From IMG/VR virus record IMGVR_UViG_2671180456_000014: DNA of 7,879 nt, one strand, 5' to 3'. The notes beneath the pieces are model-generated. The model had not been told where the DNA came from. It did no database searches and was given only the letters and a program-made list of their open reading frames with translations. The DNA comes from a virus (taxonomy: Duplodnaviria; Heunggongvirae; Uroviricota; Caudoviricetes). This document shows, piece by piece, positions 3,527 to 7,879 of this stretch (positions are counted from its first letter, which is position 1; every line of letters begins with the position of its first letter). The position numbers and the translations under genes are program-made.

Positions 3527-3573
3527 TACAACTCCGTAAACAACTTGTTTTCTCAATGGCGTAAATAATACCA
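3527..3573 (-). promoter_or_regulatory. conserved cassette promoter and 5' leader (copy E)
   Basis: Sense: TGgTATTATttacgccattgagAAAACAAGTTGTTTacGGAGttgtaaATG. Extended -10 (TG + TATTAT, 3565-3570); palindromic core 3538-3554. Confidence 0.5.
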
Positions 3574-4009: not shown

Positions 4010-4056
4010 AAAGCAATCCTTAAACAACATGTTTTCTTGATGGTGTTATTATCGCA
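4010..4056 (-). promoter_or_regulatory. conserved cassette promoter and 5' leader (copy F)
   Basis: Sense: TGcGATAATaacaccatcaagaaaACATGTtgtttAAGGAttgctttATG. Extended -10 GATAAT at 4048-4053 with TG at 4054-4055. Confidence 0.55.
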
Positions 4057-4372
4057 ATAACGCACAGGCGAAAAAGAGTTTTATTCCGGTGAATGTGGTT
4101 TTGGCAGTGAGTTTTCAGGTTCAGTACCGAGTACACTTTTTACATTATTCTGATTTAGTGGCCGAAGGTGGCTGGTGGGCAGAATAATCATCTCCCCGAA
4201 AACCTACTGAAATCGATTGTGACCCGTTGGCTGTCTGGCACAATTACGCTGTAGCTGGGCATTCAGAGGGAATCCAGCGGTAAGTAAGTTCGCCTGCACG
4301 TGAGCGCCTCTCTTCTTCCCGCACATTACAGGTGGGCAGCCGCAACTCTCCCTCACGCTATACCGGTACGCC

Positions 4373-4501
4373 GCCGTTCCTGAACCGGCATCGAGCCTTT
4401 TCCCGAAATCCACACAGGCAACTCGACCGTTTCCCTGAAAACCTCCAGCCGTTCCCCGAAGGCAACCCAGCCGTTTCTGTAGCGGGATGCAGCCTTTTCC
4501 C
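4373..4501. repeat. iteron-like array: 6 direct repeats at about 22-bp period
   Basis: Plus-strand GCCKTTYCC cores begin at 4373, 4395, 4426(7), 4448, 4470, 4492 (spacings 22, 31, 22, 22, 22). Minus-strand reading is GGRAAMGGC. Confidence 0.6.
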
Positions 4502-4559
4502 TGTATGGACCGAAGGCTGACCGTAGGGGTGTTACGGGGGATAAAATCAGGAGTTGAAT

Positions 4560-4590
4560 AAATACGAAAAAGGAGGCGACACCCCTCCTT
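4560..4590 (-). terminator. Rho-independent terminator, no ORF upstream
   Basis: Minus strand: AAGGAGG-ggugucg-CCUCCUU followed by UUUCGUAUUUAUU. Lies between the orphan promoter motif and the iteron array. Confidence 0.5.
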
Positions 4591-4623
4591 CCCTCCCCAC
4601 TTATACATACCTGTCTTGTTCGC

Positions 4624-4657
4624 TATACATGTTGTGTTTTCTTCGTGTTTTATCTGT
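4624..4657 (-). promoter_or_regulatory. orphan (ORF-less) copy of the cassette promoter and leader motif
   Basis: Sense: agATAAAAcacgaagaaaacacaACATGTatagcg aligns with cGATAATtaacaccaacaagaaaacaaTTTGTT; -10 is degenerate (GATAAA). No credible ORF before the terminator at 4560-4590. Confidence 0.35.
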
Positions 4658-4699
4658 TTCAACCTCTCTATAGGCGTTAATGCTCACTCCTTCCAGAAC

Positions 4700-5460
4700 G
4701 TTCTATACGGCGACTATTTCTGTTGGTGAATTGGGTGTGTTGTTTTCTCTGTCGGTGTATGTGGTTTCGTTAGTTTTGCGGTGGTTCTTCTATGGGGTGT
4801 TCTCGTCGTTTTGGTGATTGTTCTTCTCCGTGTATGGAGTAATGGCAGGTGGGCGATTGCTTTCGTTATTGTGTTTGAGTTGTTTGTCTGGAGTGTGTGA
4901 AAGGCTTTTGTAGTTATTCGTGTGTTGGGTAATGGCGTTTCCCGTGATTGTTATGTTTCGTGTCTTTTGGGATTGAGAGAAGCCTTGCGGTTACAGGCTT
5001 CGTTGGGGTTTCAGTGATTCTGGTGTTTCTTCGCTGTTTGGGGAATGGCGTATCGTGGGTATTGCGCGTATGAATGTTTTCGGATTGCCTGTGAAAGTTA
5101 GGTTGGTTGTCCGGTAGCCTGGGAAGAAGAGGTGGGTCTTTTCGGTAGCCTGCCATAAAGAGGTTGGTTGTTTTGGGTAATGGCATATGTGTTATTTAGT
5201 TGTTTTGTTATGCCTGAAAATAAGTTGTTTATATGGTTGTGTAACGCAACGGGAACGATTTTGAGCGTGTGTTTTTGTTGGTAGTGTGTTGGGTCGTCTG
5301 TGGTGAAAATTGGACGCTGTGGCGCTGTCTGCTGCGTAGAGTTACGGGTATAAGCAGTGATGTGTGAAAACGTCAATTTTTTAGACCAAATCGGGTGAAA
5401 GCGTTGATGTTTCGTTGATCTGTTATTCAGTTGTTTTCTTGATTGTATAAACAACTATAA
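4700..5460. repeat. strongly G/T-skewed non-coding region of degenerate intergenic-module repeats
   Basis: Plus strand is about 80% G+T in sampled stretches. Recurrent GGTAATGGC units near 4842, 4931, 5044, 5180; 5113-5185 aligns with the region upstream of promoter A (1464-1540); degenerate promoter-motif copies at 5274-5290 and 5431-5445. No credible ORF on either strand. Confidence 0.55.
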
Positions 5461-5518
5461 CTTATTGATATTTAAGGATGTGATTGCGGGTATGGAAGGG
5501 GAGTAGTGGCGATCAACG

Positions 5519-5538
5519 GATTCTTATAGAAAAGAATC
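5519..5538. other. inverted repeat downstream of gene H
   Basis: GATTCTT-atagaa-AAGAATC 7-bp stem; no U-tract on the minus strand, so not a canonical terminator. Confidence 0.3.
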
Positions 5539-5564
5539 AAATTGTGACCGCCATTATCAATGTT

Positions 5565-6299
5565 TTACTTAGTTTTGTTTAGCAGAGAGAGAATTTCATC
5601 ACTAATTTCACTCGCCTGTTTGATAGCCAATGCAGTTACCTCTTCTATGGTTGGTGACTGTTGATGCTCATATTTGGTTTCGGTTATGACAATGTGTTCT
5701 TCACCAGAATTTGCGCATAGTGCCGCATTGACGATAAGGTTTGAGTAAGAATTTAGCAGAGCACTGTTGATGAACGCTTTCACGGTATTACTGTCTGCAC
5801 CAAATACATCTTTTCTGACCGCTTCAGCCTCACAGCGAACCCCTGCAGCAACATCGTGAAGAACATGTATGGCCTTGGAGCTTGTTTGTTCACAGTACTC
5901 AATCATTATTGTCGAATTGTTCTGTTCAACAAACGATCTGATGCCTGACGATTTACCCATAGCATCGAAGGCAGCGTGACCCGCACTAGTAGAGATATCT
6001 TCATAGAGTTCTTCATCGCTATCTTTTTCTTCAGGTGTCGAGGTGTCTTCATCGTCGTAATAGATATTGCCTTTAATCAGTGTCTTGGACACTTGATATA
6101 AACAATAAGAAACGAGATTTAAGCATTGGATTTTAGCTGTATTGTCCTTTGTCGCCTCGCTCTTCAGTTCTTTCGCTTCTTCAGTAAGGCTGTTGATAAG
6201 ACTTTGTATTTTTTCCAACGCGTTAGGTGCACACTCCGCGTTGTCCATAAAGAATTTATAACCAGTTCCAGGGATTTCTAAACTTTTCAACTTTTTCAT
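5565..6299 (-). CDS. hypothetical protein, 244 aa (gene H), AT-richer than its surroundings
   Basis: ORF track 5565-6299; ATG 6299-6297 with AGGA about 11 nt upstream; 45 nt after gene G with no promoter motif of its own, so probably co-transcribed. Acidic patch YYDDEDTSTPEEKDSDEELYED. No Walker, HTH or transmembrane signature seen by eye. Confidence 0.6.
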   Translation of the reverse strand: MKKLKSLEIPGTGYKFFMDNAECAPNALEKIQSLINSLTEEAKELKSEATKDNTAKIQCLNLVSYCLYQVSKTLIKGNIYYDDEDTSTPEEKDSDEELYEDISTSAGHAAFDAMGKSSGIRSFVEQNNSTIMIEYCEQTSSKAIHVLHDVAAGVRCEAEAVRKDVFGADSNTVKAFINSALLNSYSNLIVNAALCANSGEEHIVITETKYEHQQSPTIEEVTALAIKQASEISDEILSLLNKTK

Positions 6300-6344
6300 T
6301 TCTTTGATAATCCTAAAAACAAACTACCAATGCTTTAATATCTG

Positions 6345-6644
6345 TTACCAGTTCCAGCACTCAAGCCCTTCAACGACCGGTGCACCACAATCAAAATGTA
6401 CAGAGTCAAAGCCTACATCAAGTACTTTCTGAATGTTAGCAATCGCGCCTTCGGATATACCATATCGACGCAAGTCGTCTTTCCAGACATCATCCTGTAA
6501 CCCGGCGTGGACAATACAACCGCCGTCAATTTGCGAAACCCAATCCAGCTCATTGCTTGCGATCATGAATCGACGAGCATCTTCCTCTGATGTATGAGAT
6601 GAACTGATCAATGCCACCTGGTAGGCTTGGGTAATGTTCAACAT
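6345..6644 (-). CDS. small acidic hypothetical protein, 99 aa (cassette gene G)
   Basis: Start ATG 6644-6642 (MLNITQAYQ...) with GGAG 8 nt upstream; the track uses an upstream GTG at 6653. TAA stop at 6345-6347. Confidence 0.6.
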   Translation of the reverse strand: MLNITQAYQVALISSSHTSEEDARRFMIASNELDWVSQIDGGCIVHAGLQDDVWKDDLRRYGISEGAIANIQKVLDVGFDSVHFDCGAPVVEGLECWNW

Positions 6645-6722
6645 TTCAACCACTCCGAAACAATTTGTTTTCTTATGTGGCTTATTATCTCAATTAACAA
6701 AAGGCAGAAAACAAATTGTTTT
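6645..6722 (-). promoter_or_regulatory. conserved cassette promoter with two palindromic cores (copy G)
   Basis: Sense: AAAACAATTTGTTTTctgccttttgttaatTGaGATAATaagccacataagAAAACAAATTGTTTcGGAGtggttgaaATG. Extended -10 GATAAT at 6684-6689; palindromic cores at 6658-6671 and 6709-6722 flank it. Confidence 0.55.
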
Positions 6723-6754
6723 AGGGTATGCGTAAATCAGAAGGGATTGTGTCT

Positions 6755-6805: not shown

Positions 6806-7879
6806 TTACTTAACCTGGTGGCCTGGTTTAGCACCAGCATCCGGGCTTAACAGGAAGATATCTTTCCCGCCGGGGCCAGCAGCCATCACCATGCCTTCGG
6901 AGATACCGAAGCGCATTTTACGCGGTGCCAGGTTAGCCACCATAATGGTGTGACGACCAATCAGTGCCTGTGGATCTGGATAAGCGGAACGGATGCCTGA
7001 GAAGACATTACGCTTTTCACCGCCGAGATCCAGCGTCAGGCGTAGCAGTTTGTCAGAACCTTCTACAAACTCTGCGTTTTCAATCAGCGCCACGCGCAGG
7101 TCAACTTTGGCGAAGTCGTNNNNNNNNNNNNNNNNNNNNNNNNNNNNNNNNNNNNNNNNNNNNNNNNNNNNNNNNNNNNNNNNNNNNNNNNNNNNNNNNN
7201 NNNNNNNNNNNNNNNNNNNGTCAGGCGTAGCAGTTTGTCAGAACCTTCTACAAACTCTGCGTTTTCAATCAGCGCCACGCGCAGGTCAACTTTGGCGAAG
7301 TCGTCAAAGGTGATAGTTTCCTGAATCGGGTCGTCAGCCAGTGGGCCAGTTACCGGTGCGGCTGTGGCTTTCACTTCTTCTTTGGATGCTTCCACCAGTG
7401 CTTCAACCTGCTTCATATCGATGCGGTTATACAGTGCCTTGAACGGATTCACTTTATGGCCCAGCAACGGTTGCTGGATGCCATCCCAGGTTAGTTCTGT
7501 ATTGAGGAATGCCTCTGCACGTTCAGTCAGTTTTGGCAGTACCGGTTTCAGGTACGTCATCAGCACGCGGAACAGATTAATGCCCATAGAGCAAATCGCC
7601 TGCAGATCGGCATCGCGTCCTTCCTGCTTCGCCACCACCCACGGAGCCTGTTCATCGACATAGCGGTTAGCCAGGTCAGCCAATGCCATGATTTCACGGA
7701 TAGCTTTACCAAATTCGCGGCTTTCCCATGCTTCGCCAATCACTTCAGCGGCATCAGTAAAGGTTTTGTACAGTTGCGGGTCAGCCAGTTCGCCTGCCAG
7801 CACGCCGTCAAAACGCTTGTTGATAAAGCCTGCATTACGAGAGGCCAGGTTAACCACTTTGTTCACGATATCGGCATTC
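6806..7879 (-). CDS. metG: methionyl-tRNA synthetase, 3' portion (runs off window; interrupted by assembly gap)
   Basis: Minus-strand translation gives ...[105 protein letters not shown], which I recognise as the enterobacterial MetG C-terminus (tRNA-binding domain). TAA stop at 6806-6808. The apparent frame change is fully explained by the 100-N gap plus 85-bp duplication (185 bp, not a multiple of 3). Confidence 0.9.
7035..7304. repeat. 85-bp exact duplication flanking the gap (7035-7119 = 7220-7304), assembly artefact
   Basis: Identical sequence gtcaggcgtagcagtttgtcagaacc...ggcgaagtcgt on both sides of the N run; collapsing one copy and the gap restores a continuous metG reading frame. 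Confidence 0.9.
7120..7219. other. scaffold gap (100 N)
   Basis: Run of exactly 100 n characters. Confidence 0.97.

Follow-up and report, generated by a model that had tools for sequence, protein, structure and literature searches.

Neighbouring genes on a phage-plasmid

Genes G and H lie side by side on the minus strand of IMG/VR virus record IMGVR_UViG_2671180456_000014, a stretch of 7,879 nucleotides (nt) that is referred to below, at its full length, as the window. The question raised by this locus is whether the two genes form one functional module, as in the original prediction of a two-component defence or abortive infection (Abi) pair read from one transcript, or whether each belongs to a unit of its own. 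The results indicate that G and H, although adjacent, belong to different units. What had been taken for a chromosomal defence pair becomes a pair of units within a known element, each regulated on its own. Overall, G is probably a nearly silent gene of the early or establishment type, and H is probably an independent moron, i.e. an autonomously transcribed extra gene inserted between conserved phage genes, encoding an acidic cytoplasmic protein involved in conflicts.

The best matches to the window are ~108-kb plasmids that are 98% identical to it over 99% of its length; one such plasmid, pLF82, has been re-annotated as Escherichia phage Cyrano (OV696614), with genes for terminase, capsid, tail and lysis proteins, RepA and ParAB. 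Because of this identity and of the gene content of Cyrano, we assign the window to an Escherichia SSU5-type phage-plasmid (pLF82/Cyrano type) with a captured metG-apbC pair. Among 5,426 complete E. coli genomes, all matches outside metG are on plasmids of ~105-125 kb. The island beside metG, as it was first described, is thus not chromosomal; the phage-plasmid itself carries metG. Resistance genes are carried by phage-plasmids of the SSU5 type, which are frequent in clinical Enterobacteriaceae and whose accessory cassettes are almost wholly uncharacterised.

Gene G (CYRAN_101 of Cyrano; 6345..6644, minus strand) encodes a protein of 99 amino acids (aa) of the DUF5983 family when read from its ATG codon, and an alternative upstream GTG start at 6653 would extend the product to 102 aa. 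Gene H (CYRAN_102; 5565..6299, minus strand) encodes 244 aa in the six-frame list of open reading frames (ORFs), and the spacer between the genes (6300-6344) is 45 nt long, in agreement with the ORFs and the distance originally reported; this spacer is identical across the compared alleles. The ratio of nonsynonymous to synonymous polymorphism (pN/pS) is 0.03-0.27 for H (nine alleles) and 0-0.14 for G (six alleles), and the variable sites in H are distributed as 4/1/16 over the three codon positions. Both G and H are real genes under purifying selection; for H, this selection, together with the existence of a full-length homologue (see below), rules out a spurious ORF.

With 40.7%, the GC content of H is below that of the window (45.3%), of the neighbouring cassettes (41.8-49.0%) and of metG (52-53.5%). 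At third codon positions (GC3), the value for H is 39.2% vs. 51.1% for the other island genes pooled, i.e. 12 points lower (z = −3.3). Thus, when GC content is computed gene by gene, H is AT-richer than its surroundings, as had been noted by eye, only modestly so.

Transcription of H and G

In a reanalysis of RNA sequencing (RNA-seq) data for strain LF82 under five conditions, CYRAN_102, i.e. H, was listed among 13 morons of Cyrano, with 6-fold expression over the local background (PMC9928086). In S1 Table of that study, H reaches 45-590 fragments per kilobase per million (fpkm) and G 2-39 fpkm, and CYRAN_103, downstream of H, is at the floor (PMC9928086). H was therefore already known as an annotated gene and as a moron of unknown function (PMC9928086).

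From the published table, we computed correlations across ten samples covering these five conditions. The H/G expression ratio ranges from 2.4 to 40 across samples and varies with condition, and the profiles of the two genes are poorly correlated (r = 0.28). G follows five of the cassettes preceded by the promoter element described below (r = 0.81-0.96), a sixth such cassette, CYRAN_111, less closely (r = 0.68), and the terminase gene terS (r = 0.90), whereas H follows the lysogen-expressed genes CYRAN_97, CYRAN_109 (itself a listed moron) and CYRAN_111 (r = 0.79-0.86). Because the correlation between H and G is this low while each gene tracks other gene sets, H is transcriptionally uncoupled from G at the level of these published gene counts, as reanalysed here. 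The uncoupled regulation of the two genes is newly described here.

The H cassette

Comparison of relatives shows that the 45-nt spacer and the H ORF behave as one unit of 778 nt (5567..6344, minus strand) that is either present or absent. In complete E. coli genomes, the G region was found in 217 plasmids, 29 of which carry H and 188 of which do not. In the relatives L002 and L004, the H cassette is replaced by about 16-21 nt that join the stop codon of G to the conserved downstream sequence, and in L003 the slot holds an unrelated cassette of 955 nt, encoding a 61-aa protein and a 186-aa membrane protein; this alternative cassette was found in 105 plasmids. The edges of the slot are constant, the right one being the G stop codon and the left one the conserved TTGATAATGGCGGTCACAATTTG. 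The same G protein accession, WP_001405018.1, occurs with H (in L001) and without H (in L002). The suggestion that H has an origin separate from that of its surroundings thus stands, given a discrete cassette with precise edges that is missing from most plasmids with the G region and is replaced in others. These observations define a cassette-exchange slot downstream of the DUF5983 gene, and its precisely defined boundaries and occupancy have not been described before.

The 61-aa protein of the alternative cassette (L003 6779-6964) has a sub-threshold Pfam hit to the T7 Gp5.9 RecBCD inhibitor (E = 0.006; 16.9 bits vs. a cut-off of 24.5; 17 residues), a hint and not a finding.

The H protein family

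H is a near-orphan, represented by two clusters among ~15 billion proteins. A word-indexed search of 5.8 billion proteins recovered its own cluster alone (245 members), and an exhaustive HMMER search of 1.84 billion representatives yielded fragments and a single 241-aa protein, P0018 (E = 1.2 × 10−4), which aligns collinearly with H across 210 residues (21% identity). A profile of H and P0018 found no further match, and the sole H relatives detected among viral and metagenome contigs were near-identical copies. In PLSDB, H is present in 40 plasmids, all of them non-mobilizable and from Escherichia/Shigella. The only PHROGs family that includes H is phrog_20845, and the PHROGs of G and H are both families of unknown function. 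H matched no family in Pfam or NCBIfam; PADLOC gave no match for G or P0018, and its match for H was insignificant (E = 0.011, 13 bits); sequence and profile searches of the PDB with H and G gave nothing below E = 0.25. Three proteins tried as H relatives, namely SSU5_107, the 186-aa protein of L003 and a 178-aa protein of pOXA-48, were rejected for lack of BLASTP similarity.

The acidic patch originally noticed in H corresponds to residues 81-100, an acidic linker with a net charge of −10, and the whole protein has a pI of 4.7 and a net charge of −16; the patch is not conserved in P0018. No transmembrane segment was detected in H (the highest 19-residue hydropathy is 0.99), in line with the initial impression of a protein lacking a recognisable motif or membrane segment, and without a hydrophobic segment a membrane or secreted protein is ruled out. 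H is predicted to be mostly helical and cytoplasmic. Six of the nine analysed proteins of the window, H and G included, are small and acidic.

The gene for P0018 is on a 39-kb contig that is akin to SSU5-like plasmids of Klebsiella oxytoca (83% identity), which themselves lack P0018. It lies 43 nt downstream of a DUF5983 gene, whose product shares 41% identity with G and 68% with SSU5_105, and separates that gene from an SSU5_106 homologue; in SSU5 itself, SSU5_106 follows the DUF5983 gene. Thus, both known lineages of H lie directly 3' of a DUF5983 gene, in the same slot, and this exclusive association is a new observation. With two lineages known, the shared slot could reflect a functional dependence of H on G or, equally, an insertion hot spot inherited by related backbones.

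Gene G and the DUF5983 family

G matches Pfam PF19419 (DUF5983) with E = 7.6 × 10−11 (42.6 bits vs. a cut-off of 27), residues 15-102 being aligned to profile positions 3-90 of 90, and is also included in phrog_5003. G is an ordinary member of DUF5983, a family of unknown function whose name does not explain its role. Family members are presumably equivalent to the K-12 protein YeeW, a name under which the literature yielded nothing relevant. DUF5983 members are described as proteins of the CP4-44-prophage type whose genes follow the cbtA toxin gene, with no function known, and a search of the literature on the family found no experimental data and no demonstrated anti-defence activity. For a Salmonella member, an alpha+beta two-layer fold of the glyoxalase/bleomycin-resistance group has been reported (bioRxiv 10.1101/2024.01.30.577995). 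The AlphaFold2 model of G, obtained from a shallow alignment, is of low confidence (predicted local distance difference test, pLDDT, 54), and a Foldseek search with it against BFVD gave a best E of 1.8; the PDB profile search with G gave no match. The pattern Y, H, D, W..W..FD..W.W is invariant across G and its homologues in SSU5, pOXA-48 and Klebsiella IncFIB plasmids.

Homologues of G were found by tblastn in 2,301 PLSDB plasmids, 1,663 of them conjugative, and further homologues are present in SSU5 (43% identity), in Klebsiella and Enterobacter phage-plasmids and in Hafnia phage Enc34; a scan of genome contigs for G matched one locus. In pOXA-48, the one context that was inspected in detail for the location of G homologues, the gene follows ssb directly, in a block with an antirestriction gene of the ArdB/KlcA type upstream of it and with DUF1380 and DUF4942 genes, and this block adjoins the mobA-relaxase region on its downstream side, i.e. 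it is part of the leading region. DUF1380 and DUF4942 genes accompany G in SSU5-type elements as well. Leading regions of plasmids are enriched in anti-defence genes (PMC11541004, Samuel et al. 2024). The G homologue after ssb, in the company of antirestriction, DUF1380 and DUF4942 genes, resembles the leading-region islands of that study, whereas the element that carries G is a phage-plasmid of the PLSDB non-mobilizable type and not a conjugative plasmid, and the promoters in front of G and the related cassettes are ordinary double-stranded ones with a palindrome, unlike the single-strand promoters of leading regions. Unlike the DUF5983 genes that adjoin cbtA/cbeA, G is located in a phage-plasmid cassette array behind a palindrome-flanked promoter. 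We infer that G has an early or establishment function, as genes in plasmid leading regions do.

The promoter element of G and a genome-wide palindrome

A repeated element of ~50-75 nt stands ahead of G and of five more cassettes of the window, with no copy before H. It consists of GCCTTA, ~10 nt, GATAAT, ~12 nt and AGAAAACAAnTTGTTT, after which come a Shine-Dalgarno sequence and the start codon. The element was delineated from repeat families D1/D3/D5/D6, inverted repeat I8 and an alignment of the upstream regions. The copy of G spans 6650..6725 (minus strand), with the −10 hexamer GATAAT at 6689-6684 and copies of the AGAAAACAAnTTGTTT palindrome at 6706-6721 and 6658-6673, so that the palindrome stands on both sides of the −10. 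In the window, sites of the palindrome AAACAAnTTGTTT are located at 6658-6721, 4022-4034, 3538-3550, 2633-2645, 1883-1895 and 1398-1410. The 'island promoter' proposed upstream of G and absent at H is therefore a genuine repeated element; it is not specific to the island, the palindrome being spread over the whole genome of the phage-plasmid.

In Cyrano, AAACAAnTTGTTT has 9 exact sites and 27 sites at up to two mismatches, compared with 7.45 in shuffled sequences, typically 30-40 nt ahead of the first gene of an operon; the genes behind it include terS, parA, a helicase gene, nrdB and a TciA-like gene. This genome-wide distribution is newly described here. Most of the palindrome-bearing genes are near background in the published lysogen transcriptomes, the exception being parA, which is expressed. 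The distribution is suggestive of an operator bound by a global repressor of the element, CYRAN_45 and CYRAN_114 being candidates for the binding protein.

The C1 repressor of P1 acts on many dispersed operators over lytic and accessory operons and offers an analogy. As in the P1 C1 regulon, one short site precedes many operons of a plasmid-prophage, and most genes preceded by it are silent in lysogens. In contrast to the C1 operator, which is asymmetric, the Cyrano site is a perfect palindrome; a further difference is that parA of Cyrano is expressed despite its site. For DUF5983, found in more than 2,000 plasmids including leading regions such as that of pOXA-48, the location of G behind this element ties the family to a presumed regulon with almost no expression in lysogens.

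H as a moron

As an optional insert with transcription of its own in the lysogen, H fits the way in which phage morons are usually defined. The sequences that flank it are adjacent in relatives (L002 and L004), its transcription in the lysogen is autonomous in the reanalysed RNA-seq gene counts, and its base composition is deviant, as given by the GC3 values above. Like the other morons reported for Cyrano (PMC9928086), among which it is already listed, H is inserted, differs in composition and is transcribed while its neighbours are silent. Unlike for phage morons in general, no clear promoter and no intrinsic terminator of its own can be seen for H, its flanks holding promoter candidates of 8/12 consensus positions and a hairpin without a U-tract that is followed by sequence with more C than G; furthermore, its family is almost unique and is found solely after a DUF5983 gene.

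These observations combine as follows. G, placed behind the common palindrome-bearing promoter, is almost silent in the lysogen, and its expression increases in step with that of the terminase gene and of the other element-bearing genes. The H cassette fills the recombination slot between the G stop codon and the conserved downstream sequence and is transcribed alone in the lysogen. Judging from this context, H may be a soluble accessory protein of the lysogen with a part in conflicts that set the element, its host and rival phages or plasmids against each other; its likeliest role would be in exclusion or in defending the lysogen, and the next likeliest in counter-defence.

Several observations weigh against this interpretation. 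Nothing in the sequence shows the role of H, and both AlphaFold models are poor (pLDDT 41 for H, modelled with AlphaFold2 from the single sequence, and 54 for G). The sole distant homologue of H also lies directly after a DUF5983 gene, at nearly equal spacing, which favours some link between G and H. No strong promoter was recognised for H, the best candidates matching the consensus at 8/12 positions, so that H may instead come from a G-H co-transcript that is processed or whose parts differ in stability, and strand-resolved profiles are shown in PMC9928086 without a statement whether the gene counts are strand-specific. Finally, parA is expressed in the lysogen despite its palindrome, which makes a simple reading of the palindrome as the operator of a lysogeny repressor incomplete.

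Alternative explanations

It is unlikely that G and H constitute a functional two-protein module (of the defence, Abi or toxin-antitoxin type) in which H would be constitutive, G would be made upon induction or entry, and H would modulate or require G. The recurrence of the arrangement, with spacers of 45 and 43 nt even though the two G proteins are 41% and the two H proteins 21% identical, fits such a module, as do the toxin-antitoxin pairs among several other Cyrano morons (PMC9928086) and the position of DUF5983 genes elsewhere next to cbtA/cbeA toxin-antitoxin genes. However, partners that work together would be expected to travel together, and the association goes one way: H always accompanies G, in both lineages, whereas G lacks H in 188 of the 217 E. 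coli phage-plasmids and more than 2,000 other plasmids have a G homologue and no H, with an identical G accession found in both states. The proposed co-occurrence thus holds in part, in that P0018 again follows a DUF5983 gene, and fails for most copies of G. Besides, the slot accepts an unrelated cassette, so that adjacency may reflect a shared insertion hot spot; expression is uncoupled in the five conditions, with H exceeding G 2.4- to 40-fold and with uncorrelated profiles, contrary to a single operon; and PADLOC reveals no similarity to a known defence family. The defence or Abi pair read from one transcript, as originally proposed, is accordingly not borne out, although G and H may still be functionally linked.

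Similarly, we regard as improbable that H is a counter-defence or host-modulating protein, e.g. an acidic inhibitor or nucleic-acid mimic, that shields the phage-plasmid from host immunity or nucleases and does not serve to protect the host. Such a role would be compatible with an acidic, predicted helical protein without an enzymatic motif, with the prevalence of small acidic proteins in the window (six of nine), with the occurrence of G relatives in leading regions, which are enriched in anti-defence genes (PMC11541004), and with the faint sub-threshold Gp5.9 hit (E = 0.006) of the 61-aa protein in the alternative cassette. It is at odds with the expression of H in the established lysogen, where H does not rise with early or lytic genes, with an acidic patch that is not conserved in the distant homologue, and with the lack of similarity to any solved structure or named family.

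A more speculative proposal, which we consider quite improbable, is that H founds a new, very rare family that works only with DUF5983, for example as a lysogen-expressed sensor or guard that arms inducible G or is neutralised by it. If true, this would reveal a hitherto unknown conflict module of phage-plasmids and a first functional handle on DUF5983. Should H prove to act in exclusion or defence, or as a DUF5983 partner, the result would be useful and not field-changing.

It is very unlikely that G and H are read from the G promoter as one transcript, with the excess of H due to processing, to stability of the H part or to antisense reads: no promoter at 9/12 or better and no terminator were found between the genes, the 45-nt spacer is invariant and the strandedness of the published counts is not stated, yet the 2.4- to 40-fold excess depends on condition, r(G,H) is 0.28 with G tracking the element-bearing genes, and, in these samples, the majority of the remaining genes with this promoter element stay close to background.

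Ends of the H transcript

As regards an independent start for H, the consensus scan between G and H found no promoter and no terminator, and the weak candidate at 6337..6364 (minus strand; TTGAGT at 6364-6359, 16 nt, GATATT at 6342-6337; 8/12 consensus positions) has its −35 within G and its −10 within the cassette. It is one of three equally weak candidates, and H-less relatives lack the GATATT −10. The H promoter may thus straddle the junction between G and the cassette. On the opposite strand, a promoter-like TTTTCA-16-GATAAT (6284-6311, plus strand) is located at the H start codon, antisense into G.

Downstream, the conserved edge of the slot (5470..5564, minus strand) comprises a compound hairpin without a U-tract and then C-rich, G-poor sequence, and is common to H-bearing, empty and alternative-cassette plasmids; 3' of the hairpin, C exceeds G two- to four-fold over several hundred nt. 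No intrinsic terminator was recognised after H, the hairpin having no U-tract. Because CYRAN_103 is at the floor while H is at 45-590 fpkm, transcription must stop at 5470..5564. An excess of C over G is typical of Rho-dependent terminators, and the H transcript presumably ends in this C-rich, G-poor sequence in a Rho-dependent manner.

The non-coding gap and other features of the window

The region downstream of H (4600-5564, minus strand) comprises ~900 nt without a convincing ORF, with a sense strand rich in A+C and poor in G; on the plus strand, GC skew rises to +0.48 and AT skew falls to −0.55. CYRAN_103 is an annotated ORF inside this gap, at the RNA-seq floor in lysogens. The whole 1.5-kb gap is 67% identical to phage SSU5 over 1.3 kb, with a peak of 92% at 4798-4857; the mismatches show no 3-nt periodicity (113/97/92), and the gap has no Rfam match. 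The same compositional pattern is present in the diverged locus L005. The segment 4600-5564 is a conserved non-coding element, possibly a long zone of Rho-dependent termination or a site acting at the DNA level.

Beyond it, a GC-rich (53-57%) block at 4200-4560 follows a terminator-like hairpin (4593-4567) and contains several GGGAAA(A/C)GGC-type motifs spaced by ~20-65 nt, together with three CUUCGG stretches; two more copies of the motif occur at 769-806, on the far side of the cassette array. These motifs may be protein-binding repeats. An unusually stable RNA in the GC-rich block (4150-4600) was considered and rejected, given folding z-scores of +1.1 and +1.3, i.e. no excess stability. Rfam and tRNA scans of the window gave no match.

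Elsewhere in the cassette array, whole cassettes are gained and lost at repeated elements (1578-2016; around 4021-4037). The g1582 cassette is missing in L001 and L003, its edges lying in a repeated terminator hairpin (1546-1584 and 2017-2055, repeat D11), and L001 carries ~360 additional nt, which include a gene for 71 aa, at a 17-nt promoter-element repeat. In some relatives, an HD-domain gene sits between metG and G.

A run of 100 N at 7120-7219, inside metG, is flanked on both sides by an exact 85-nt duplication (7035-7304); because relatives are contiguous there and the duplication is exact, the run is an artefact of scaffold joining and has no biological meaning. A further contig, L009 (JAEWTL010000044.1, 29.6 kb), from a metagenome-assembled genome labelled Bacillota, encodes a G protein 95% identical to that of the window and is most likely a mis-binned fragment of an Escherichia phage-plasmid.

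The phage-plasmid carries full-length metG and the divergent apbC (window 6806-7866 and beyond). All E. coli chromosomes have these two genes as well, and matches of the window to chromosomes are mostly 90-95% identical. On the LF82 plasmid, metG transcription is weak, at about 16 fpkm, and that of apbC is stronger, at about 92 fpkm.

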